A DNA stretch of 64,000 bases from a virus. The stretch covers positions 32,001 to 96,000 of IMG/VR virus record IMGVR_UViG_3300035703_000020. One strand, 5' to 3'. The first letter of the stretch is position 1. Every line of letters begins with the position of its first letter. Below are positions 28,140-64,000 of the stretch, in pieces. The notes below the pieces were generated by a model that had not been told where the DNA came from, searched no databases, and was given only the letters and a program-made list of their open reading frames with translations. The position numbers and the translations under genes are program-made.

Positions 28140-28492
28140 TGGCGTTCATCCGCGGGCTCACGTATCCGCTGCAGGTTGCGAACGGGCAGCTGGTGCTGAG
28201 CGAGGATAACGACCTCATCGCGCAGCACATCTACTCCGTCCTCGAGACGCGCCCGTACGAGCGCGTGATGCGGGCCGACTACGGCCTGCAGGACCGCACC
28301 TTCGAGACGATGGACCCGACCGCCATCAACGCGAAGATCACCGCCGCGATCAACGACGCCGTCACCGGCATCCAGAACCTGCGCGTCAGCGGATCGTGGC
28401 AGAAGGGGGACTCCGGGCAGTACAAGGTAAGAATAACGTATGACGTCAATGGCGTGCCGCAGCCGCCGCTATCGCTGAGCCTGGTGATCTGA
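28139..28492 (+). CDS. baseplate wedge gp25/GPW-like
   Basis: GLTYPL, LETRPYERVMRADYG. Confidence 0.85.
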   Translation: MAFIRGLTYPLQVANGQLVLSEDNDLIAQHIYSVLETRPYERVMRADYGLQDRTFETMDPTAINAKITAAINDAVTGIQNLRVSGSWQKGDSGQYKVRITYDVNGVPQPPLSLSLVI

Positions 28493-29892
28493 TGGCCAAG
28501 AGATTCGCAATACCGGCCGTGCCCAAGGGCGAGGTCGCCCAGTACACGACCGACCCGTACCTCTGGCCCATCTCGTACGGGCACCTGCCGGTCGAGGGGA
28601 ACTACGGGACGCTCGTGCGCCCGCAGGACGACCTCCTCATGCAGAAGGGGGGCGCCCAGGCCCTCAACATCTACCAGCGGCTGCTGTTCGACTCGAACGT
28701 CCAGGCGGCGTGGCTTAAGGTCACCCAGGAGATCACGTCGCGCGACCTGCTGGTCGAGGCAGCCTCGGAGCTGCCCGGCGACATGGCCGTCAAGGAGTTC
28801 GTCGAGGAGCAGCTGAAGGACCTCGCGATGGACGAGATCTTCCGCGGGCTGCTCGAGGCCTACATCACGGGCTTCTCGGTCGGCGAGGTCATGTGGCGCC
28901 GGACCACCTCGGGCATTAAGGCATTCGACGTGCGCATGCGCGACATCCGCCGCTTCCGCTTCGAGGAGAACGAGGACGCCGACATGGGCTTCTCGATGCG
29001 GATGGTGACCCGCAAGGACATGTACCTCGGCGACGAGCTGCCCGCGCGCAAGTTTGTCACCTTCCGCTACTGGGCGCAGGCCAATGGCGACCCGTACGGC
29101 TGCGGCCTCGGGCGCATCCTCTACCCGCTGGTGAAGTTCAAGCGCCGCGCCCTGGAGTCGCAGCTGCTGTACTCCGACCGCTTCGCCAACCCCACCGCCG
29201 TCGCCACGGCCCCGCTCTCCGCCACGACGCAGGAGATCGACACGCTGTACAACCACCTGTCCAACCTGTCCCAGGAGACCGCGCTGGTACTGCCCGAGGG
29301 CTATCAGCTCGAGTTCATCAACCCCTCGGGCTCGCCCGACACCTTCACGACGATCCGCGACTCCATCATCAAGGAGATCAACGTCCTGGTCACGGGCGAG
29401 GACGAGACGGGCAACGCCGACGCCGGCTCGAGGGCGTCGTCCGAGGTCGCCCTGCAGGTGCGCGAGGTGCGGGCCAAGGAGCTGTCCGAGCTTGTCTGCG
29501 AGACGCTCAACGAGTCGCTGGTCCGCTGGATCGTCGACCTCAACTACGGCACCAGCGTGGTCGCCCCCAAGATCCGCCGCGACTTCAAGCTGGAGGAGGG
29601 CAGCAAGCTGACGATGACGGACGTCGGCACGATGATCGAGAAGGTCGGGTTCCGCCCGACGCGCGACTGGATCCAGGACACCTACAAAGTCGAGCTGGAG
29701 GAGCCCGAGGAGACCGAGGCCCCGCCGGCAGTGGAGCAGGCCGCCCCGGAAATTCCCGCGGAGGCGGGCCCGATGCAGGAGGGCCAGCCGGCCCCCGAGA
29801 TCCCGGCCGGGCAGGCGCCCGAGGCTGGCACCGAGAGCGTGTCCGACGATGAGCTCGACGCGCTGATCGACGAGGTGCTAGGCCTGCAGTAG
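28492..29892 (+). CDS. portal protein (Mu gp29/DUF935-like)
   Basis: GFSVGEVMW, PYGCGLGRILY, RFANPTAV, GSRASSEV, LVRWIVDLNY. Confidence 0.85.
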   Translation: MAKRFAIPAVPKGEVAQYTTDPYLWPISYGHLPVEGNYGTLVRPQDDLLMQKGGAQALNIYQRLLFDSNVQAAWLKVTQEITSRDLLVEAASELPGDMAVKEFVEEQLKDLAMDEIFRGLLEAYITGFSVGEVMWRRTTSGIKAFDVRMRDIRRFRFEENEDADMGFSMRMVTRKDMYLGDELPARKFVTFRYWAQANGDPYGCGLGRILYPLVKFKRRALESQLLYSDRFANPTAVATAPLSATTQEIDTLYNHLSNLSQETALVLPEGYQLEFINPSGSPDTFTTIRDSIIKEINVLVTGEDETGNADAGSRASSEVALQVREVRAKELSELVCETLNESLVRWIVDLNYGTSVVAPKIRRDFKLEEGSKLTMTDVGTMIEKVGFRPTRDWIQDTYKVELEEPEETEAPPAVEQAAPEIPAEAGPMQEGQPAPEIPAGQAPEAGTESVSDDELDALIDEVLGLQ

Positions 29893-29934
29893 TGCGGGTA
29901 AAACGTTACGAGGCTGTCCCCAGCCGAGACTGAG

Positions 29935-32049
29935 ATGATCAAAGAAGTCAACATCTTCAAGGCCGGGACGCAGACCTCGGCCCAGGGGATCACCAGGGAG
30001 TTCACCAAGAGCGACCTGAAGCAGATCGCCGACTCCTACACACCCGACGTCCACGAGGCCCCGATCCGAATCGGGCACGAGGACAACGACAAGGTGCCAG
30101 CGTGGGGCTGGGTTAAAGGTGTCAAGGTGCGGGGCGACGAGCTCTTCGCCGAGATCGAGTTCTCCCCGCTCGCCGAGGAGTACATCAAGAACGGGCTGTA
30201 CAAGAAGGTCAGCGCGTCGTTCTACTCCCCAGACTCTAAAATCAACCCCGAGCCGGGCAAGTGGTCCCTGCGCCACGTGGCGCTCCTGGGAGCCCAGCCC
30301 CCGGCCGTAAAGGGCCTCAAGGGCTTCGCGTACGAGGAGGGTGCCGACGGCGTCCTCGACTTCGCTGTCGCGACGCTCTCGCCCGAAGCCGTGTTCGACG
30401 ACGAGCTCGGACCAACACTCAAGCGGGACGTGGGACCGCTGGAGATCCTTAAAGAAAAACTCGACGAGGCCCGTTCACAAATGACAGCCGAACAGCAAGC
30501 AGCCGCGCCGGAGCAGGAGCTCGAGGCGCAGACCCAACCCGAAGAGGTGACCGCCAAGGAGGAATTCGGCGAGAAGCCCGCCTTCCTGTCGAAGGGCAAG
30601 AAGGTCAAGGGCGAAAAGATGGGCGAGGAGGAGGAGTCCGACGAGGAGGAGGAGGACGACACCATGATGGCGGCCGAGATGGCCGACAGCAAGCTCCCCG
30701 ACGCCCTCAAGAAGAACGCCGCCAAGAAGATGGCCAAAAAGCGCGGGATCTCCGAGGAGGAGGCCATGGAGGAGAAGTCCGACTACGGGTCCTGCGGCAA
30801 GAAGGGCATGAGTTACGAGGAGTCAGACTCCGAGGAGCACGGCGAGTCCGAGGCGATGCACGACGGCAAGGTCAAGGGCCTGAAGGCCCCGGCCGCCAAG
30901 GGCATGTCCGGCATGTCCCCCGAGGAGGTGGACGGCGAGGGCCCCGTGGCCTCGAAGGTCAAGAAGAACGCCAAGTCCGGCGCCTGCGACCCCGAGTGCG
31001 AAGACGACGACAAGAAGTTCGAGGAGCCCACGATGGAGGCCTCCAAGCAGAAGCGCGGCACCGACGGCCTTAACAGCACCGGCGCCGGCGTCAAGGAGAC
31101 CGAGGGCGGCCCGGGCGGCCTGGTCCGCACCCGCTCCACCTCCAAGGGCGTCAACCTCGGCTTCGAGGAGGCCGACGAGCTCGAGGACGACGACGAGCAG
31201 CACGTCGAGACCGACGACAACAACTACGTCGGCAAGACCACCAAGCCCAAGCACGGCCACGACGGCAAGTCCGGCCGCAAGTCCAGCCCCTTCAACGACC
31301 AGTCCGGCCGTGGTGAGGTCGGCAAGGCCGGCGCCGACGGCGAGACCGGCCGCGGCAAGACCGGCAAGGCGCCCGAGATCAACGGCTACCCCGGCGCCAA
31401 GGGCGACGCCAGCAAGGTGGGCAAGGACGACGAGGACATGGAGGAGAACTACCACGGCAAGACCGGGAAGTCCTCCGCCCAGGACGCCGATCGCAAGAAG
31501 GTCGGTAAGCACGGGGACTCCAAGGGCTACCCCGAGAAGTACATGACCACCGGTCACGGCGGCGGCAGCGGCAAGCAGATCAAGGGCGGCAAGGTCCGCG
31601 TCATGGAGGTCAACCACTCCGAGGCCGATGACCGTCTCGGTCAGATGCTCGCCCGACTGGAGGAGCTCGAGGCCGCCAACGCCCGCCTCCGCGAGCAGGC
31701 CGAGTTCGCCGAGCGCCAGGCCAACCGCATGCGCCTGGAGCAGTTTGCCGAGGGTCTCTACGAGGCCGGCAAGCTGACCGAGGCCGTCGTCGGCATGGAC
31801 GAGCTCGTGGACTACATGGAGGGCCTCGAGCACGGCACCCTCGAGTTCGCCGAGGGCGAGAGCGCGGCCACGCCCCTGATCAAGATCCTGAGCAACCTGC
31901 CCTCGCAGGTCTGCTTCGAGGAGCTTGCCGGCGGTGAGGTCGTCGTGTCCGACGAGGCGCTCGACCCGCACGAGAGGGCGCTCAAGATGTCCAAGGAGCA
32001 GGACATCAGCTACACCGAGGCGCTGAAGCAGGTCCTCTACACGGCCTGA
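29935..32049 (+). CDS. prohead protease/scaffold (Mu gpI/Z-like) with long charged low-complexity insert
   Basis: IFKAG, APIRIGH, AWGWV, YKKVSASFY, LRHVALLGAQPPAVKGL; C-terminal ISYTEAL. Confidence 0.85.
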   Translation: MIKEVNIFKAGTQTSAQGITREFTKSDLKQIADSYTPDVHEAPIRIGHEDNDKVPAWGWVKGVKVRGDELFAEIEFSPLAEEYIKNGLYKKVSASFYSPDSKINPEPGKWSLRHVALLGAQPPAVKGLKGFAYEEGADGVLDFAVATLSPEAVFDDELGPTLKRDVGPLEILKEKLDEARSQMTAEQQAAAPEQELEAQTQPEEVTAKEEFGEKPAFLSKGKKVKGEKMGEEEESDEEEEDDTMMAAEMADSKLPDALKKNAAKKMAKKRGISEEEAMEEKSDYGSCGKKGMSYEESDSEEHGESEAMHDGKVKGLKAPAAKGMSGMSPEEVDGEGPVASKVKKNAKSGACDPECEDDDKKFEEPTMEASKQKRGTDGLNSTGAGVKETEGGPGGLVRTRSTSKGVNLGFEEADELEDDDEQHVETDDNNYVGKTTKPKHGHDGKSGRKSSPFNDQSGRGEVGKAGADGETGRGKTGKAPEINGYPGAKGDASKVGKDDEDMEENYHGKTGKSSAQDADRKKVGKHGDSKGYPEKYMTTGHGGGSGKQIKGGKVRVMEVNHSEADDRLGQMLARLEELEAANARLREQAEFAERQANRMRLEQFAEGLYEAGKLTEAVVGMDELVDYMEGLEHGTLEFAEGESAATPLIKILSNLPSQVCFEELAGGEVVVSDEALDPHERALKMSKEQDISYTEALKQVLYTA

Positions 32050-32053
32050 CCAG

Positions 32054-32773
32054 ATGGAGCTCCTGACATTCGTTGGTCAGGCGGCCAGGCGCAAGGGCGA
32101 CTACGTTGATCGCGCCGAGGGCCTGGCCGAGTCCGCTGGATCGCTCGAGAAGCTCGAGGAGGAGATGAACGGGAGGGCCGACGCGCTCTCCCGCAAGCTC
32201 GCCCTCGGCAAGATCACGCTCTCGGAGTTCCAGAGGGCCGCCGCGGAGGACACGCTCGTCAGCTCGCTCGCCGCCGTGCAGCTCGGCTACGGGCGCAAGT
32301 CCGGGCTCACCGACTCGGCCTACGCCGAGACGATGGGCGCCATGCAGTACCTGTGGCGGTTCTTCGAGGACATTAAAAGGGCGCTCGCGGAGGGTAAAAT
32401 CGAGTACGGCTCGGTCGGGCAAGACTTTGCTGACGCCGAGGAGACAGAGGACAGCATCCTCGACGAGATACCCGAGTCCGCGCTATCGCCCAAGCCAGGC
32501 GCCTCCATCCCGGCAACGTGGGGAGGGGTCAGGGAGCGCGTGAAACGCTACCTGGTCACGCCGGCCTACCGCTGGCACAACGCCGGCCGCATGGCCCGCC
32601 GGCAGGAGCTGGGCGCCAAGGAGATGCGCCGTGTGGCCCGCCGCGACAAGCGGACGTGCCGCGACTGCCTCGACTACGACGCCTCGGGGTGGCAGCCCAT
32701 AGGAAGCCTGCCCGTCCCCGGCACCCGCTGCAGATGCCACGACCGCTGCAGGTGCGTCCTAGAGTTCCGCTAG
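32054..32773 (+). CDS. head morphogenesis protein (Mu gpF/SPP1 gp7-like)
   Basis: C-terminal DKRTCRDC...PG..CRCHDRCRC. Confidence 0.65.
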   Translation: MELLTFVGQAARRKGDYVDRAEGLAESAGSLEKLEEEMNGRADALSRKLALGKITLSEFQRAAAEDTLVSSLAAVQLGYGRKSGLTDSAYAETMGAMQYLWRFFEDIKRALAEGKIEYGSVGQDFADAEETEDSILDEIPESALSPKPGASIPATWGGVRERVKRYLVTPAYRWHNAGRMARRQELGAKEMRRVARRDKRTCRDCLDYDASGWQPIGSLPVPGTRCRCHDRCRCVLEFR

Positions 32774-32838
32774 CGGGTAAATCGTAACAAAGAGAACCCC
32801 TCACGGGGCCAGATTGAAACCCATTCGCCAAGTATAAA

Positions 32839-33279
32839 ATGGCTTCTCCCGTCTACGGCAAGCAGTACATCCGCTTTGCCGAAACCTTCCAGGTCGCCCA
32901 GGGCACCGTCGTCAACGAGTTCCGCGTGGTCGGCCTGACCGGCGCCCCCGGCGCTCACCCTCCCCTGCTCGTCGAGCAGTCCGGCGGCGGTGAGGCCGTC
33001 GGCGTGGCCCAGTACACCCTGAACGACAACGTGCCCCCGACCGGCTTCGCAACCGACGAGGTGCGCATGCTGACCGTGGCCACCAGCGGCCTGCTGCTGG
33101 TCGCCGGCGACGGCACCAACGTGGCCGGCGACATCGGCCAGCCCCTCGAGGTGGACGCCGACGGCCAGGCTACCCTGACCGGCTCCGGCAGCGGCGTGCT
33201 GATGAACGGCACCACCCCCATCGTTCGCGACGTGATCGCGATCGGCGGCGAGGCCTTCGTGCTCGCAAGCTTCAACTGA
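32839..33279 (+). CDS. head decoration/cement protein
   Basis: Small Gly/Val-rich gene directly before the major capsid gene. Confidence 0.65.
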   Translation: MASPVYGKQYIRFAETFQVAQGTVVNEFRVVGLTGAPGAHPPLLVEQSGGGEAVGVAQYTLNDNVPPTGFATDEVRMLTVATSGLLLVAGDGTNVAGDIGQPLEVDADGQATLTGSGSGVLMNGTTPIVRDVIAIGGEAFVLASFN

Positions 33280-33370
33280 TCATAGCTGATCCTGTCCTGG
33301 CCTTGGCTTCGGTCGCACCGTGTAAGCCCAAGGCCGTCTCTAACCTTCTGCAGAAGGAGACTTAAAGTCA

Positions 33371-34426
33371 ATGATGAATCTTCGTGACACCTACGGTGGT
33401 GTCGACCCTATTCTGACTACGCTGGCGCAGGGCTTCATGCTGCCCGAGACCAGCATCGCCAACTTCATCGCTCCCGTGGTGGACACCCCCACCCGGGCCG
33501 GTAAGATCCTGCGCTTCGGCAAGGAAGCCTTCGCGATCCAGGACTACCGCCGCGCCTACGGCACCAACATCCCCGCCGTCCAGAGCCGCTTCGACACCGA
33601 CGCGTACGCCCTGGAGCAGGAAGTGATCGCTTGGGAACTGCCCGAGGAAGTGATCGAGAACGCTGGTGAGGGCCCTGCTCAGGTCGACCTGCGCGCCATC
33701 GAGACGCGCAACGCCATGAGCCGCCTCATGAACAGCTACGAGGTGACCGTGGCCAGCGCCGTGGCTACCACCGGCAACTACGAGCCCGGCGTGATCGCTC
33801 CCGGCGGCACCCTGGGCCTCGGCTACGCCGACTGGACCACCTACGCCGCTGACGCGACCGCGATCGGCATCAACAATGGCGGCAACCCCTGGGGCACCGG
33901 CGTCAACAACCCGATTGTCGACGTCCTGAACTGGAAGCGCGCCGTCTCCAACCAGATCGGCATCCGCCCCAACAGCGCTGTGATCGGCACCGCTGTGTTC
34001 GACAGCCTGCTGACCAACGCCGCGATCCTGGACCGCATCCAGTTCACCACGGCTGACAGCATCGACGTCGACGTGCTGGCCCGCTACTTCGGCCTCGAGC
34101 GCGGCATCCGCGTCGCCGAGGGTCGTCGCCTGGCCGATGACGGCACGCTGACCCCCGTGTTCCCCGAGAACGCCGTCCTGCTGTTCTACAGCCCGCTGGC
34201 CGCGTCCGAGTCCGTGATGCCCGCCGGCGGTGCCAACGCCGCCACCCCCGCCTTCGCGTACACGTACCAGCTGACCGGCACCCCAGCCGTCCGCCCCGAG
34301 TACTACATCCGCGAGCGTCGCGTGGTGCGCGCTGAGATCACTGTCGAGCGCGCGGTGAACATCACCGGCCTCGGTGCAACTGGTGCCTTCGGTTCTGGCT
34401 TCTACATCGACGACGTGTTCGCCTGA
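33371..34426 (+). CDS. major capsid protein
   Basis: VDPILTTLAQGF, IGIRPNSAVIG; strongly biased codons; position in the head module. Confidence 0.85.
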   Translation: MMNLRDTYGGVDPILTTLAQGFMLPETSIANFIAPVVDTPTRAGKILRFGKEAFAIQDYRRAYGTNIPAVQSRFDTDAYALEQEVIAWELPEEVIENAGEGPAQVDLRAIETRNAMSRLMNSYEVTVASAVATTGNYEPGVIAPGGTLGLGYADWTTYAADATAIGINNGGNPWGTGVNNPIVDVLNWKRAVSNQIGIRPNSAVIGTAVFDSLLTNAAILDRIQFTTADSIDVDVLARYFGLERGIRVAEGRRLADDGTLTPVFPENAVLLFYSPLAASESVMPAGGANAATPAFAYTYQLTGTPAVRPEYYIRERRVVRAEITVERAVNITGLGATGAFGSGFYIDDVFA

Positions 34427-57366: not shown

Positions 57367-59051
57367 GGCCCATCATCACGCACGCGTCGCAGCTGGAGGA
57401 GCACTCGAGCTGGCGCGTGTACAAGCGCGGGCTCCGCGAGCTGGAGCTCATGGAGGCGCCGAAGAGCGTGCTGCAGGACTACAGGTTCCGCGCGGCGCGC
57501 TCTTGCTTTCTGGCGTTCGCGGACGTCATGCTCGACGGCAAGCTGCAGGTCGCCGACTTCCACGAGATCATCGGCTCCGCGTTCGAGGACGTCGCCCAGC
57601 TGCGCTACCAGAGGCTGATCGTCAGCTGCGCGCCGCGCTCGGGCAAGTCAATGCTCGCCCAGCTGTTCGTCGCATGGCTCCTCGGCCACGACGAGCAGAC
57701 GCAGCACATCATCGCGTCGTACGGCCAGCTCCTCTCGAACAAGTTCAACCGCGGGGTCAACGGCTACCTCCGCCACAAGCACTTCCAGCGCATCTTCCCC
57801 GAGTGGAGCGGCTTCCACCCGGACTCCAAGTACGACATGCGCGGCGGCGGGTTCATCCTCGCGACGTCCGTCGGCGGGGTGCTCACAGGCTTCACGGCCG
57901 GGACGCCGCACGAGGACAGCCCCGGCGTCGGCGCGATGGTCATCGACGACCCGCTGAAGGGCTCGGACTCCCGCGCCGCGTTCGAGGAGTTAGAGGACTG
58001 GTGGGGCGAGCAGGCGTCCACCCGGCGCACGAACCGCTGGGCCCAGCTCGTCATCGGCACCCGCTTCGGCGAGAAGGACCTCCACGGCCTCCTGATGGAC
58101 GGCGACGGCCTCTGGGACCCCGACGACAACCCGAAGGGCTGGCGGTGGGTGAACATCGAGGCGCTCTGCGAGAACGAGGCGACCGACATCCTCGGCCGGA
58201 AGAACGGCGAGTCGCACTGGCCCGGTAACGGCACCTTCACCGTCGACATGCTCCTCTCGCAGAAGAGGATCATGGGCTCGGACAAGTTCTCCGCGCTCTA
58301 CCAGGGCAGGCCGACGGCGCAGGAGGGCTCGATCGTCAAGGCGGGCTGGATCAGCGTGAAAAGGCCCGAGGACTGCCCGGAGTTCGACATCACCTACCTG
58401 TCGCTCGACACGGCGTTCTCCGAGAAGCAGAGCGCGGACGAAAGCGTGATCGCGGTGATGGGCTACTCGCGCAAGCACAAGGACGACGTCTACGTCCGCG
58501 AGATCATCAGCGGGCGGTGGGGCTTCCCAGACCTGCTCGCCATGCTCGAGCAGACGCGGAAATACTATGGGGCGAAGTTCCTCACGATCGAGCAGGCGGC
58601 GTCCGGCCAGTCGCTGATCCAGATGCTCGAGCGGGAGAGCAAGATACACATCCACGGATTCAAGCCGCTGCGGTCCAAGACGATCCGCCTGCAGACGGTG
58701 TCCCCGCTGTGGGAGGCCGGGCGCGTGCACTTCGTCGAGGGCGCCTGGACGGACGACTTCATTAAGGAGCTCACGGCCTTCCCCTTCGTGCCGCACGACG
58801 ACCGGACTGACGCGGTCGTTTACGGGTTGACGTACTACATGTTCCACCTCGACGGTGGAACGCACGGCGACACGCTCCAGGCGATTGTCGGCGCCAAGGG
58901 CAAGTCACCAGGCCGCGGGCAGCTCACGGGCGAGTTCACGGAGCTGCGGAGCGGCAGGAAGCGCGAGCTGCTGACGCACGGCGAGAGGGCACTGTACTTC
59001 GGCAAAGGCGGCAAGCGGTCGGGGCTCTCGTACGACATAGGCATGGACTGA
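57363..59051 (+). CDS. terL: terminase large subunit
   Basis: Walker A APRSGKS, Walker B VIDDP, GTRF, LYQGRP, LDTA, HDDRTDA. Confidence 0.93.
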   Translation: MRPIITHASQLEEHSSWRVYKRGLRELELMEAPKSVLQDYRFRAARSCFLAFADVMLDGKLQVADFHEIIGSAFEDVAQLRYQRLIVSCAPRSGKSMLAQLFVAWLLGHDEQTQHIIASYGQLLSNKFNRGVNGYLRHKHFQRIFPEWSGFHPDSKYDMRGGGFILATSVGGVLTGFTAGTPHEDSPGVGAMVIDDPLKGSDSRAAFEELEDWWGEQASTRRTNRWAQLVIGTRFGEKDLHGLLMDGDGLWDPDDNPKGWRWVNIEALCENEATDILGRKNGESHWPGNGTFTVDMLLSQKRIMGSDKFSALYQGRPTAQEGSIVKAGWISVKRPEDCPEFDITYLSLDTAFSEKQSADESVIAVMGYSRKHKDDVYVREIISGRWGFPDLLAMLEQTRKYYGAKFLTIEQAASGQSLIQMLERESKIHIHGFKPLRSKTIRLQTVSPLWEAGRVHFVEGAWTDDFIKELTAFPFVPHDDRTDAVVYGLTYYMFHLDGGTHGDTLQAIVGAKGKSPGRGQLTGEFTELRSGRKRELLTHGERALYFGKGGKRSGLSYDIGMD

Positions 59052-59441: not shown

Positions 59442-59875
59442 AACACAAGCACAGAATCACGCCAGGCTACGAAGGTGGTGAGTACGTAGAGGGGAATGTA
59501 GTCGAGCTGACACCGACGCAGCACGCAATGTGGCATTTCGCCGAATGGCAACGCAAAGGCAATTGGCAAGATAGATTAGCGTGGCAGTGCTTGACCGCGC
59601 AATGCACGAGGGGGGAAGCTGTAAGAAAAGCTCAATCAGAAGGCGGTAAACTGGGAGGCAGATCAAGACCATCGGCTGAAGCTAGAGAGAAAATGAGCGC
59701 GTGGCAACGTGGTGAAAGGAGCCCGAGTTACGGAAAATGTAAGAGCGAGGAAACGCGGAGGAAAATTTCGGCAAGTAGCAAGGGAAAGAAACTGAGCGAG
59801 GAAACACGCCGCAAAATAAGCGAGGCCAGTAAAGGTAGAACACCATGGAATAAGGGCTTGCGTCTGCGGGGGTAA
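59438..59875 (+). mobile_element. free-standing HNH homing endonuclease with NUMOD3 repeats
   Basis: HKHRITP..GG..N..LTPTQHAMWH; SEETRRKIS repeats; PWNKG; markedly lower GC. Confidence 0.85.
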
Positions 59876-59905
59876 GCTCGGGACATACCTTGGCAAGAAT
59901 ATGCC

Positions 59906-60706
59906 ATGGCAAAAATTAAAGGGGGTGAGCCGCATGATCACCTAGAGTTCGCATTGGTCGAATCTCAAACCTTTGTCACCGATACAATGCCAGCTTGCAA
60001 AGAGCGTCGCAAGGAACGCAGGGCTAACGTGGCCCGCGCCGAGCTCGACACCCACCGCAACATGGACCTCATGCCGTTCATCCCGAGGACGGACAGGCAG
60101 GAGGAGCTCTGGACATGCCTCAACAAGAACACCGTCACGATCGCCGTCGGCCCGGCCGGCGTCGGTAAGACCCTCGTGGCCCTGCACTGGGGCCTCAGCT
60201 CGATCAGGGTCAACCAGATCGACAAGATCTACTACCTGCGCTCCGACGTCGGGGTCATGCACCAGCGGGGCCGCGGCGCGCTGCCGGGCACGATGGAGGA
60301 GAAGATGGCGCCGCTCGTCGGCCCGGTCTTCGACAACCTCAACGTGATCATGCGGTCGCACGGCGCCGCCGAGTACCTCGTCAACAAGAAGGTCGTCGAG
60401 CCGATCCTGCTCGAGGACGTCCGCGGCCGCTCGCTGTCGAACTGCCTGATCGTCTTTGACGAGGCGCAGAACGCCACGCCCGACCAGTGCAAGACCGTGC
60501 TGAGTCGCGTCGGCGAGAACGCCAAGGTGGTCCTCACGGGCGACACCAGGCAGATCGACCTCGACGTGTTCCAGACCAACTGCGGGCTGATCGACGCCTA
60601 CCAGCGCCTCGCGGGGCTCGACCAGGTCGGCAGGGTCCGGTTCACGGCCGACGACATCGTGCGCAACTCGGTGATCGCACACATCCTCAGAAGGTATGAC
60701 GACTGA
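59906..60706 (+). CDS. phoH: PhoH family ATPase
   Basis: GPAGVGKT, LPG, RGRSL, DEAQN, GDTRQID, DIVRN. Confidence 0.93.
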   Translation: MAKIKGGEPHDHLEFALVESQTFVTDTMPACKERRKERRANVARAELDTHRNMDLMPFIPRTDRQEELWTCLNKNTVTIAVGPAGVGKTLVALHWGLSSIRVNQIDKIYYLRSDVGVMHQRGRGALPGTMEEKMAPLVGPVFDNLNVIMRSHGAAEYLVNKKVVEPILLEDVRGRSLSNCLIVFDEAQNATPDQCKTVLSRVGENAKVVLTGDTRQIDLDVFQTNCGLIDAYQRLAGLDQVGRVRFTADDIVRNSVIAHILRRYDD

Positions 60707-61472
60707 CGCGGACAGGTACGCATCCTCGTTCGACGGTGGGTCCCGGGAGGTTCTCGGGGCCCTCTTCGACTTCGCGGCGTGCGAGAGGCCGGACGGGTCC
60801 CGCTACGGGATCGCGGCCGGCAGGCGGTGCAGGAAGGGCCGCGAGGTCGACATCGAGGGCGCCGAGTGGGAGTACCTCACGAAGGGCAACTACGGGGCCG
60901 TCGAGATCGACCGAAAGCAGGGGCTGATCCGCAAGACCAACGTGCCGGGCCGGAGCTTCGGCGAGCACGAGGCGGAGCTGCAGAGGATGATGGGCGACGC
61001 GGGCCACAGCCCGAAGCTCCACAGGGCGTCCGACAGCGAGATCGTCATGGACCTGGCGCCCGGGAAGACGATCTGGAAGGACTACAGGCCGTCCGAGGGC
61101 GAGAAGGGCGTGAGGTTCAACGAGGCGCAGGCCTCGGCCGCGGCGAAGGCCGTGCTGTTCCTCCACCGCAAGGGCTTCTACCACGGCGACATGCACAGCC
61201 TGCAGTGGATGGTGGACGGCGACAGGCCCATGCTGATCGACTTCGGCCTGAGCGGTAAAACGGCCTCGGACCCGAGGAAGGCGCTGCAGGACTGGACGAA
61301 GGGCGCGGCGTTCATGAACCTCGACGCCGTCGGCGGGGAGGGCGGCAGGCGCGTCCGGGACTACGTCGGGCGGTACAGGGAGGCGGGGGCGTCCAAGCCC
61401 GCGAAGGACAGGCAGGCCAAGCAGGAGCAGGTCGCCAGGGAGTACCTGGACTGGGTCGGCTCGCTCGGGTAA
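60696..61472 (+). CDS. protein-kinase-like enzyme fused to the N-terminal Cys module
   Basis: DFAACERPDGSRYG..CRKG, then LTKGNYGAV, HGDMH, LIDFGLS. Confidence 0.8.
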   Translation: MTTDADRYASSFDGGSREVLGALFDFAACERPDGSRYGIAAGRRCRKGREVDIEGAEWEYLTKGNYGAVEIDRKQGLIRKTNVPGRSFGEHEAELQRMMGDAGHSPKLHRASDSEIVMDLAPGKTIWKDYRPSEGEKGVRFNEAQASAAAKAVLFLHRKGFYHGDMHSLQWMVDGDRPMLIDFGLSGKTASDPRKALQDWTKGAAFMNLDAVGGEGGRRVRDYVGRYREAGASKPAKDRQAKQEQVAREYLDWVGSLG

Positions 61473-61515
61473 ACCCTACGAGGCGGGCTCCCGTCCCGCG
61501 TTAAAGCAGACTGCC

Positions 61516-62124
61516 ATGAGAAAAGACCGCTTCACCGACGAGGCCCTGCGGAACGCGCGGGCGCTCGCCGAACTGAAATACTCCGAGAACCCCGAGGAGC
61601 AGACGGCCTTCGCGGAGGCCTACGACTTCGCGCGCTGCCAGCGGCCCGACGGCACCTTCTACGGCACCAGCGGCCAGTGCCGCAAGGGCCAGGAGGCCGG
61701 CGCCAACAAGAAGCTCAAGACGGACTTCCGCAAGGAGGTGGCCGCCGGCGCCGCCAAGCGCAAGGTGCGGGACGAAAAGATCACGGCCAGGCAGGGCCGC
61801 GACGCCGAGCTGCGGACGCAGATCCGCGACGCGATCGTCGCGCAGCGCCCGATCAAGGCCGAGCTCGACCGCCGCGAGCGGGCCCTCCGCGAGGTGGAGC
61901 GCCGCGTGAAGAAGGACCCCTCGAAGGAGAACAGGGCCAACATGAGGACGCTCGCCGCCGCCGTGCGGGAGAAGGAGCGCGAGTACAACAAGGCCGAGCG
62001 GGAGATCGAGAAGATGGCGCGCGAGCGGGCGCGCCTCGAGCGGCAGCGGCAGCGCGAGCTGATGACCCCGGCCCAGAGGGCCGAGGAGCGCCGCGTCGGC
62101 AAGATCATCAAGGAGCGCGGCTGA
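61516..62124 (+). CDS. Cys-module protein with basic coiled-coil cargo
   Basis: YDFARCQRPDGTFYGTSGQCRKG. Confidence 0.8.
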   Translation: MRKDRFTDEALRNARALAELKYSENPEEQTAFAEAYDFARCQRPDGTFYGTSGQCRKGQEAGANKKLKTDFRKEVAAGAAKRKVRDEKITARQGRDAELRTQIRDAIVAQRPIKAELDRRERALREVERRVKKDPSKENRANMRTLAAAVREKEREYNKAEREIEKMARERARLERQRQRELMTPAQRAEERRVGKIIKERG

Positions 62125-62717
62125 TGGCCAGGGTACACAGCAACATCTTCGACAACTTCAGCGAGGAGGCCCTCGAGGCGCTGGACTTCGCCCGTTGCCA
62201 GCGGGCCGACGGCTCCTACTACGGGACCTCGGGCCAGTGCCGCAAGGGCAAGGAGGCGGGCGACAAGACAGCTGAGCAAAAGAAAGTTCCAACGGCGAAG
62301 CCCAGCGGAGTAAGCAACGAGCAGGCGATGAAGCTCCGCGCCTCCCTCACCAAGCAGATCGGCGACGCAGCAAAGTCCCGCGACCTGAACAAGACCAACA
62401 ATCTGATGCAGGCGCTCGCGGCCGTCGAAGGTCAGCTCAAGGCCAGAGGCGTTAATCTCGCCGGAGGCGGGGCGATGGCCGAGGCCAAGGCCGGCGAGCG
62501 CGAGATCGCCCGCGGCGAGAAGTTCATCGGCCGCGCCCGCGTCGCGATGAAGAAGCTCTCCAACGAGCGCAATGTCGCCCAGATGCGCCTGCAGATCGGG
62601 CGCATGAACCAGATCGACGAGGCCATGAAGCGCCTCCGCAAGAAGGCTGAGCAGGTCGGCGGGCGGCTCGACGAGCTGACCGGCACCAAGGGCCAGGGCA
62701 AGTACTACGTCCCCTGA
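62124..62717 (+). CDS. Cys-module protein with basic helical cargo
   Basis: FSEEALEALDFARCQRADGSYYGTSGQCRKG. Confidence 0.8.
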   Translation: MARVHSNIFDNFSEEALEALDFARCQRADGSYYGTSGQCRKGKEAGDKTAEQKKVPTAKPSGVSNEQAMKLRASLTKQIGDAAKSRDLNKTNNLMQALAAVEGQLKARGVNLAGGGAMAEAKAGEREIARGEKFIGRARVAMKKLSNERNVAQMRLQIGRMNQIDEAMKRLRKKAEQVGGRLDELTGTKGQGKYYVP

Positions 62718-62863
62718 GGCCGGCATGGCGATACACGACAACATCTTCGACAACTTCAGCGAGGAGGCCCTCGAGGCGCTGGACTTCGCCCGTTGCCAGC
62801 GGGCCGACGGCTCCTACTACGGGACCTCGGGCCAGTGCCGCAAGGGCAAGGAGGCGGGCGACA
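62141..62863 (+). repeat. 125-bp identical direct repeat (62141-62265 and 62739-62863)
   Basis: Base-by-base identity over the module-coding region. Confidence 0.92.
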
Positions 62864-63243
62864 GGCCGGCCGAGGCGCCCAAGGGCGACCGGGCGCCGGT
62901 GCTCAAGGACCGCATCGCCAAGGCTAAGGCGTCAGGTGACAAGAAGAAGCCTGAGATCGACGAGAGCAAGCTCTACAGGCTGAATCAGAAGCAGAACCAG
63001 CTGGCCGAGAGAATCGGGCGCGAGCGGTCCATGCTGGCCCGCATGAGCACGGGCAAGGCGGCTGCCGAGCTCCGCAAGCGGCGCGAGGACCGCATCAAGA
63101 AGCTCTCGCGGTCGCTCAAGCGGCTGGGCGAGCTGCGAACCGAGGCGAACAGGCGGCTCGACAAGGGCGCCAGGAAGTCCGGCAGGCCGAGGCCGCTGAT
63201 GGCCCCCAACTGGGGTACCAGCCCCGGGAGACCCACCAAGTAG
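62725..63243 (+). CDS. Cys-module protein with basic cargo
   Basis: Same module as 62124, unrelated C-terminus. Confidence 0.8.
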   Translation: MAIHDNIFDNFSEEALEALDFARCQRADGSYYGTSGQCRKGKEAGDRPAEAPKGDRAPVLKDRIAKAKASGDKKKPEIDESKLYRLNQKQNQLAERIGRERSMLARMSTGKAAAELRKRREDRIKKLSRSLKRLGELRTEANRRLDKGARKSGRPRPLMAPNWGTSPGRPTK

Positions 63244-63247
63244 GCCC

Positions 63248-63667
63248 ATGAACAACTTCGGACGCATCAACCCCGAGGCCCTCGAGTGGGCCGAGAACCC
63301 CGAGTGGGCCGAGAAGTACGGCGGCATCGACTTCCGCCCGCCCCAGTCCGTGGCTGACGCGGCGGCGCGCGGGCTCGAGCTGCGCAAGAAGACGGGCCGC
63401 GGCGGCTTCAGCACGAAGCAGGCGGCCGCCGAGGGCGTGGGCTCCGGCGTGCAGCGCGCCGCGTCGCTGAAGAACAGGCAGTCGCTGTCGCCGGCGACCA
63501 TCGGCCGCATGGTGAGCTTCTTCGCCCGCCACTCGGCGTACAAGAAGGACCACACGACGGACCCCCCGTCCAACAGCCTCATCTCGTGGCTGCTCTGGGG
63601 CGGCGACCCGGGCAGGGCCTGGGCCGAGAAGGTCAAGGCGCAGATGGACCGGGCCGATGAGAAGTAG
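63248..63667 (+). CDS. conserved phage head-associated domain protein
   Basis: AARGLELR..RMVSFFARH..ISWLLWGGDPGRAWA. Confidence 0.7.
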   Translation: MNNFGRINPEALEWAENPEWAEKYGGIDFRPPQSVADAAARGLELRKKTGRGGFSTKQAAAEGVGSGVQRAASLKNRQSLSPATIGRMVSFFARHSAYKKDHTTDPPSNSLISWLLWGGDPGRAWAEKVKAQMDRADEK

Positions 63668-64000
63668 GCTACCGCAGCACGGCGGCTGGGACACCGGCCT
63701 CGAGGCGAAGGCCAGGGAGGTCCTCGCGCTCCGCTACTCTGAGTCGAACGGGCACCTGGACTACACGATCTGCCAGCGCGCGGACGACTCCCGGTACGGG
63801 ATCGGCGAGGGCAAGGAGTGCCGCAAGGGGAAGGAGGTCAGTCGCGAGGAGGTGCTCACGATGCTGACGCGCGAGGGGCTCGTGCGCACGGACAAGCAGC
63901 GCGAGAGGCTCAGGCAGCTCGACGACAAGACCCTTGCGAAGGTCGCCGACAGGGCGGTCACCCGCGCCGAGCAGGGCACGCTGAAGATCGCCGGGAAGAT
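63657..64000 (+). CDS. Cys-module protein, 3'-truncated (absent from the ORF track)
   Basis: Hand translation: MRSRLPQHGGW...YSE..LDYTICQRADDSRYGIGEGKECRKGKE. Confidence 0.75.
   Translation, partial: MRSRLPQHGGWDTGLEAKAREVLALRYSESNGHLDYTICQRADDSRYGIGEGKECRKGKEVSREEVLTMLTREGLVRTDKQRERLRQLDDKTLAKVADRAVTRAEQGTLKIAGK

Follow-up and report, generated by a model that had tools for sequence, protein, structure and literature searches.

The region analysed is a stretch of 64,000 nt, referred to as the window, that covers bases 32001-96000 of the IMG/VR virus record IMGVR_UViG_3300035703_000020. The record has 149,878 bp with direct terminal repeats and a GC content of 65%. The virus is an S-CBWM1-like cyanomyovirus. 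Synechococcus phage S-CBWM1, which is not of the T4 type, is the nearest cultured relative, and the large terminases (TerL) of the two share 56% identity. Downstream of the terminase gene lies a row of genes, six of which open with the same N-terminal module. It consists of a short helical leader and a core of ~27 residues with two cysteines (DF-x-R-C-Q-R-P-D-G-S-x-Y-G-T-x-G-x-C-R-K-G). Five of the six genes start in the window, the sixth just beyond. Genes are named by their first position in the window; positions on the full record are marked as genome positions. The module genes and one gene between them are as follows.

60696..61472, + strand: module and protein-kinase-like cargo, 258 aa; core at 60768-60845 (D25-E50 with Cys29 and Cys45), 49 bits
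61516..62124, + strand: module and very basic helical tail, 202 aa; core at 61624-61695, 77 bits
62124..62717, + strand: module and basic tail, 197 aa; core at 62184-62255, 78 bits
62725..63243, + strand: module and a different basic tail, 172 aa; core at 62782-62853, 77 bits
63248..63667, + strand: leader-like N-terminus (INPEALEW) without the Cys core, 139 aa; phrog_2859, E 2.3e-10
63657..64000, + strand, running on to genome position 97096: module and HNH-like cargo, 479 aa; core at 63759-63836, 47 bits
genome 97099-99444, beyond the window: sixth module copy, at the head of a 781-aa kinase

The original prediction, made from the letters of the window, had described a leader followed by D[FY]xxC[QE]RxD[GD][ST]xYG[TI]x(2-4)CRKGxE in genes 60696, 61516, 62124, 62725 and 63657, and had proposed that this is a portable tag by which diverse effectors are loaded into the virion. 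The five copies are real. Scored with a profile built mostly from the module copies of other phages, they and the sixth copy reach 46-78 bits (E 1e-15 to 2e-25). Likewise the proteins diverge past the module as had been stated. The first 132 nt of genes 62124 and 62725 are 98.5% identical and no similarity is found beyond, a sharp edge that marks a recent exchange at the module boundary.

The cargo of gene 60696 is a kinase fold, as had been supposed. The HxD and DFG columns are invariant, the AlphaFold2 (AF2) model has a predicted local distance difference test score (pLDDT) of 81 and at least 500 Foldseek matches are kinases. The module sits ~10 residues ahead of the glycine-rich loop, and Cys29 and Cys45 are the sole Cys residues of the protein. 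The highly basic character noted for the tails also holds: the three basic tails of the row have 20-32% Lys+Arg and pI values of 10.4-11.5. Gene 61516, whose stop codon is overlapped by the start codon of gene 62124, has a long leader with an LAELKYSE insert, and its tail contains 32% Lys+Arg (pI 11.0). The HNH signals in the 479-aa protein of gene 63657 are weak only (IscB HNH region with E 0.006; motif LDHK...NWIWISTASNQVKG), and BLASTP of its cargo against S-CBWM1 gp106 gave no significant match. Gene 63248 encodes no Cys at all and is another cassette of the row. A second leader-only protein is found further downstream (genome 100281-101012; L007:8281-9012). It has 243 aa, a GSFSQEAYEQL leader, no Cys and a pI of 4.05, with 44% Asp+Glu past residue 60, and its neighbours are basic module proteins. 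A role as DNA mimic, or as counter-ion partner of these basic proteins, is conceivable.

The distribution of the module was evaluated by profile searches. A search of 5.8 billion proteins yielded 681 matches among the 8,000 candidates scored. When 1.84 billion cluster representatives were searched exhaustively, 1,056 clusters matched at E<=1e-3 and 711 at E<=1e-10. With few exceptions these are proteins of phages, and the majority carry the module at the N-terminus. No family of Pfam, NCBIfam or PHROG covers the module, the sole trace being phrog_5776 with E 0.067 over 11 residues. This agrees with the original prediction, which had recognised no named family; a known domain with another function, which would have spoken against a loading tag, is not found in these libraries either. 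Across 36 viral contigs (IMG/VR loci) we count 110 module copies, 3-9 per locus where they are clustered and nearly all right after the start codon. With the region as query, Megablast gave no match among 50,697 phage records, and tblastn with the 197-aa protein of gene 62124 matched S-CBWM1 alone. In one genome per species of 185,579 prokaryote species only six loci were found. Five lie on contigs of metagenome-assembled genomes together with typical module genes, one of these genomes being assigned to Prochlorococcaceae, and we read these five loci as phage-derived. The sixth match, in the complete genome of Acidobacteria Mor1 (17 bits), looks like chance.

The module is well conserved. Most positions of the core, which in 273 distinct copies reads E-x-[YL]-D-F-[AT]-R-C-Q-R-P-D-G-S-x-Y-G-T-x-G-x-C-R-K-G, are conserved to 75-99%. 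When phages of 65% GC are compared to phages of 46% GC, the residues are retained while third codon positions at conserved residues match in 33-62% only. Since the residues are kept and the synonymous sites are scrambled, selection acts on the protein. AF2 on 72 aligned copies (residues 1-50 of gene 62124) predicts a short helix followed by a beta hairpin with a core pLDDT of 88-89. In this model as well as in that of the full 258-aa kinase the leader is poorly ordered and the core confidently folded, which in these models is as expected for a docking element. A comparison of the 50-residue model with the PDB (Foldseek), with 48,161 chains (VIA-align) and with the ESM Atlas returned no meaningful match, a result that is uninformative on fold novelty given the small size. 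The module is not a zinc ribbon or knuckle with four Cys/His ligands and two knuckles: it has two invariant Cys, no conserved His and no match to such a fold.

Cargoes were catalogued by cutting 243 module proteins at their modules. The resulting 288 segments group into 84 clusters by BLAST, the most populous of which hold basic helical tails (94 segments), a GNAT-like motif domain (42), kinases (31) and an HNH-like domain (7). We use the GNAT-like label as our own reading of a motif, and the HNH-like label, taken from weak matches, is likewise provisional. Pfam finds Pkinase, APH, ABC1, ADP-ribosyltransferase, DUF3626 and DUF6496 among the cargoes, and one of the S-CBWM1 cargoes is a cytidylyltransferase annotated as NMNAT. 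Same cargo types are found behind different heads. The module-bearing kinases of the present genome are closest to the Rio-like and ChoK-like kinases of S-CBWM1. Cargoes are thus interchangeable behind one constant N-terminal module, and its portability stands as originally proposed. The description as an N-terminal tag needs to be qualified. The first module ends at most 70 residues from the start in 83% of the 243 proteins, but internal copies occur as well: a single copy is present in 200 proteins, two copies in 41 and three in 2. These 43 proteins consist of 2-3 module-plus-payload units in one polypeptide, while in the present genome the units are separate genes. The internal copies retain their own leader-like stretch and look like fused neighbouring cassettes.

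Several observations connect these proteins to the virus particle, and the retained residues at scrambled synonymous sites described above are counted among them. The order TerL, PhoH, module genes, DUF5824 and tail fibre recurs in a 245-kb contig and in relatives of 46% GC. S-CBWM1 has two canonical module copies compared to six here. One is gp165 (module and basic tail), encoded two genes upstream of the sheath, portal and protease genes; the other opens the open reading frame of the single cytidylyltransferase/NMNAT locus. In the high-GC contig L047 an array of the canonical type lies near a gene for a MuF-type minor head protein, which is upstream of the module genes. PMC10665884, citing Xu et al. 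2018, reports APH, ChoK and Rio2 kinases and an NMNAT-like protein as detected in S-CBWM1 virions, and PMC9602691 independently places NMNAT in the virion proteome. Hence the proposed loading into virions for ejection agrees with the structural setting and with the NMNAT reported in virions, while the module as the cause of loading is our interpretation.

Moreover the cargoes are extremely poor in cysteine. They contain 48 Cys in 61,479 residues (0.078%) compared to a genome background of 1.02% and 0.70% in open reading frames of the structural region. 91% of the cargo segments have no Cys, and the kinase cargoes have none in 15,233 residues. The Rio, ChoK, APH and NMNAT proteins reported from S-CBWM1 virions have 0-1 Cys outside their heads; the PknB-like kinase, which the virion list as given in PMC10665884 does not name, has 7. 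We infer that Cys-free cargoes reflect storage in an oxidising particle and threading through the tail, whereby crosslinks are avoided. A single tolerated pair, 13-15 residues apart, would close a small loop only. In 69-76% of the copies the module is flanked by motifs with a final Glu, compared to 18% of control windows, a lead only with regard to cleavage.

The genes just ahead of the row, the head genes which any loading signal would need to address (28492..34426, + strand) and the distant gene 495 are listed below.

28492-29892, + strand: Mu-type portal (PF06074, E 3e-66)
29935-32049, + strand: Mu gpI-like protease/scaffold (PF10123, E 2e-5)
33371-34426, + strand: major capsid protein (PF03864, E 9e-8)
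57450..59051, + strand: large terminase, just 5’ of the gene row
59906..60706, + strand: PhoH-like gene (PF02562, E 3.7e-50), the first gene of the tightly coupled row
495..1175, + strand: 226-aa protein with FSPEAL leader and a variant two-Cys motif (C-GGSWIS-x4-C-LKGE at 552-611)

From PhoH to the tail-fibre genes all genes of the row are on the same strand with overlapping or abutting stop and start codons; the 3’ end of the PhoH-like gene overlaps the start of gene 60696. A MuF domain (PF04233) is not matched anywhere in the 150-kb genome at E<=0.1. The gpI-like protease/scaffold has 704 aa and a large insertion relative to its S-CBWM1 counterpart. The row ends ahead of the tail fibres with a DUF6496 and a DUF5824 gene (L007:10480-11094 and L007:11199-11546; genome 102480-103546). 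DUF6496 is fused directly N-terminal to the two-Cys module in proteins of the P0011 type. DUF5824 aligns to the C-terminal part of phrog_3041 (profile positions 608-675 of 678), which is annotated as cytidyltransferase.

Gene 495 had been described as opening with a degenerate copy of the module. The FSPEAL leader and the pattern C-x10-C-LKGE are indeed shared, but nothing else is, and the canonical profile does not detect the gene (E 0.41). The profile does not detect a copy at genome 99639 either. On their motifs, a leader and a differently spaced Cys pair, both appear to be look-alikes rather than proven homologues. The gene-495 protein combines the variant Cys motif with an Ala/Gly-rich helical domain. 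In the metagenomic protein P0120 a canonical module with a kinase is preceded by a fused homologue of the whole gene-495 protein. Such a fusion ties gene 495 to the same cassette system despite its distance of 60 kb from the row.

Kinase, HNH-like and other genes of the same arrays start with a second type of N-terminal head, which contains four Cys (C-x-KGK-x-C-G-x-x-C-[IV]-x5-C). It is found in S-CBWM1 gp106 and the S-CBWM1 APH kinase (L050:26779-26913 and L012:9808-9942), and further sites are L034:3173, L037:6752 and 12339, L045:4714 and 11883, L035:5998 and 6981, and L047:17057. It has no Pfam match, and with an hhalign probability of 1.4% homology to the two-Cys module is not claimed. 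The APH kinase bearing this head is among the proteins reported as virion-associated in PMC10665884. The high-GC IMG/VR contigs L035 and L047 (31-34 kb) carry arrays of 300-1,200-aa proteins, each with an RLDALE-type helix at the start followed by one of three Cys motifs (canonical-like, CG-x-GWIS or four-Cys). In both contigs, array proteins of 1,100-1,200 aa match the C-terminal part of a PHROG annotated as portal. The arrays look like a polyvalent-protein locus of a different phage lineage.

The motif GGGTAAR ahead of genes 495 and 61516 had been called late-type. It is enriched (14 in the window, 4.5 expected) and strand-biased (genome-wide 26 on the + strand vs 2 on the - strand). Window positions include 459, 2210, 6247, 22203, 29896, 32775, 34941, 46062, 59870 and 61467. 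About a dozen copies are located 33-39 nt 5’ of an ATG, among them those of gene 495, PhoH and the protease/scaffold gene; for gene 495 and the PhoH-like gene (motif at 59870-59876) the sequence is GGGTAAG at a distance of 36 nt. The same spacing of 36 nt is seen for a GGGTAAG ahead of the acidic leader-only gene at genome 100281. The copy at 61467 overlaps the stop codon of the kinase gene 60696. The motif is likely a phage promoter or processing element. Its use as a late-promoter marker was dropped and it does not date the row as late, because it precedes non-structural genes too.

Taken together, the genes of the row very probably encode a polymorphic family of virion-carried effectors. 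From gene 60696 on, they would provide a particle-carried set that is delivered with the phage DNA and comprises protein kinases, an HNH-like protein and strongly basic helical proteins which are probably DNA-associated. The shared N-terminus would act in two parts, a short amphipathic leader of the F-S-x-E-A-L type and a compact beta hairpin held by the two invariant cysteines, and would bring the cargo into the assembling Mu-type head as the T4 capsid-targeting sequence or the MuF domain do elsewhere. The Cys pair may form a short-range disulfide or a metal staple in the particle. By analogy to these systems, we favour such a common address or handle as the role of the module and give it about an even chance of being correct. 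A stronger version is less probable: leader and hairpin might form a self-sufficient, transferable handle for loading and ejection in Mu-type heads devoid of MuF, such that any Cys-free fusion would be packed and injected and the Cys loop reduced on entry.

A number of points weigh against the module as loading determinant. The virion report concerns a homologue, the S-CBWM1 NMNAT, and the proteins of the present genome are known from their genes alone. The NMNAT gene of S-CBWM1 sits among tRNA genes and small open reading frames, away from the structural genes. The Rio and ChoK kinases of S-CBWM1 lack the module and are still listed in virions in what PMC10665884 reports; hence the module is not needed for entry into the particle. 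It is also not strictly an N-terminal tag, because it is found internally in the fused proteins (43 of the 243). Leader-only genes (63248-63667; genome 100281) occur in the same row. Finally, the conservation of the module, above 75% at most core positions, is far higher than that of the portal (53%) and the protease (44%) of the same phage pair, which fits better to a universal partner such as DNA than to a fast-evolving scaffold.

Part of these points also serves the best surviving alternative, in which the proteins are virion-carried but the module acts after ejection as a hairpin binding nucleic acid or a host hub, loading being due to the basic tails or the leader alone. Each cargo would then be tethered by the module, either to the DNA that enters or to a single conserved structure of the host. 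Four conserved Arg/Lys flanking the two Cys, the conservation beyond that of the head proteins, the leader-only genes and the module-less kinases in the S-CBWM1 virion list as given in PMC10665884 are all consistent with this. Against it, the module shows no similarity to a known DNA-binding or other fold in the structure comparisons given above, and a binding domain would not need the strong bias to the extreme N-terminus. We regard this account as a minority option.

The cysteines themselves suggest another explanation. The pair could be a redox latch, oxidised in the particle outside the cell and reduced in the host cytoplasm, by which an enzyme is switched on after delivery or the producer cell is protected. 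In nearly all members the two Cys are invariant and the sole Cys of the protein, and in the 258-aa kinase the short distance to the glycine-rich loop would suit such a switch. In most members, however, long basic or proline-rich linkers part the module from its cargo, many cargoes are non-enzymatic helical tails and the conserved leader is left unexplained. A latch is therefore rather unlikely. Even less likely is a homotypic association domain, by which the paralogues would bind each other, possibly with a metal shared between them, and assemble into a single internal body of which one member alone is anchored to the capsid. The presence of 3-9 paralogues per phage and the natural tandem fusions would agree with it, and two Cys per chain could make a four-ligand site in a dimer, but a conserved His or further ligand is missing. 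That the shared 5’ segment serves mostly as a recombination site at which cassettes are shuffled, with no biochemical role of its own, as the identity edge between genes 62124 and 62725 and the exchange of cargo types between heads might suggest, is highly improbable given that amino acids are kept despite randomised synonymous sites between phages that differ widely in GC, and that the AF2 core is confidently folded.

If the module is a loading handle as favoured here, it would bear on a field in which the proteins injected by phages and their selection for packing are known in detail for very few systems. It would mark candidate injected proteins in widespread aquatic cyanophages, with about a thousand clusters already visible, and it groups virion-associated kinases and NMNAT that had seemed unrelated. 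As a small tag it is directly testable for the loading of foreign proteins. More generally, an extreme scarcity of Cys like that of the cargoes may characterise proteins which have to stay in an oxidising particle before they travel through the tail.

The concept of such a handle is not new. Encapsulin cargo-loading peptides and the Dar system of phage P1 also direct unrelated cargo into an HK97-fold shell, by means of a short element at one terminus or of several partners acting in order; neither has a sequence or structural relation to the module described here. The T4 capsid-targeting sequence and the MuF/polyvalent effectors are further precedents in concept, and it is the domain itself that is undescribed in the libraries and papers searched.

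For polyvalent proteins and MuF-fused effectors of phages, packing into the particle and injection have been predicted (Iyer et al. 2017, PMC5512222). They resemble the present system in their portal-terminase context, which is putatively late here, in their cargo repertoire (kinases, ADP-ribosyltransferases, nucleotidyltransferases, nucleases) and in multi-domain fused units, with solo cassettes clustered beside larger fusions. Several effector domains in one polypeptide, with kinase, ADP-ribosyltransferase or nuclease cargo in a putative late-gene context, are seen in 43 of our 243 proteins. The difference is that neither MuF (PF04233) nor another named packaging domain is found here in protein or genome; instead a small head module is present on every unit, and the units are mostly encoded by genes of their own. 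A cysteine-based domain was not found described in PMC5512222, in the text of which the word cysteine is absent. S-CBWM1 has an NMNAT carrying a canonical module, gp165 with module and basic tail, and kinases similar to those found here. PMC10665884 and PMC9602691 present these proteins as enzymes associated with the virion, and neither mentions an N-terminal module common to them.

The comparison drawn originally was to T4, in which the internal proteins IPI-III and Alt share an N-terminal capsid-targeting sequence (PMC3012670, PMC9026906). In concept it is apt. In both cases an N-terminal element is common to unrelated, often basic or host-modifying proteins, a constant label is combined with diverse payloads and an ADP-ribosyltransferase is among the cargoes; those of T4 are packed in the head and injected. 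The T4 label differs in being a peptide of ~10 residues. It attaches to the scaffold core of gp22, and gp21 removes it by cleavage at L/I-x-E. In the present case a leader is combined with a folded two-Cys hairpin of ~27 residues that has no sequence similarity to it and also exists in internal copies. The T4 cleavage rules cannot be carried over, because the head is Mu-type with a protease similar to Mu gpI rather than to gp21, and without MuF. If the stronger version outlined above is true, the module would represent a second solution, structurally unrelated to the T4 capsid-targeting sequence, and could be used for protein delivery into cyanobacteria.

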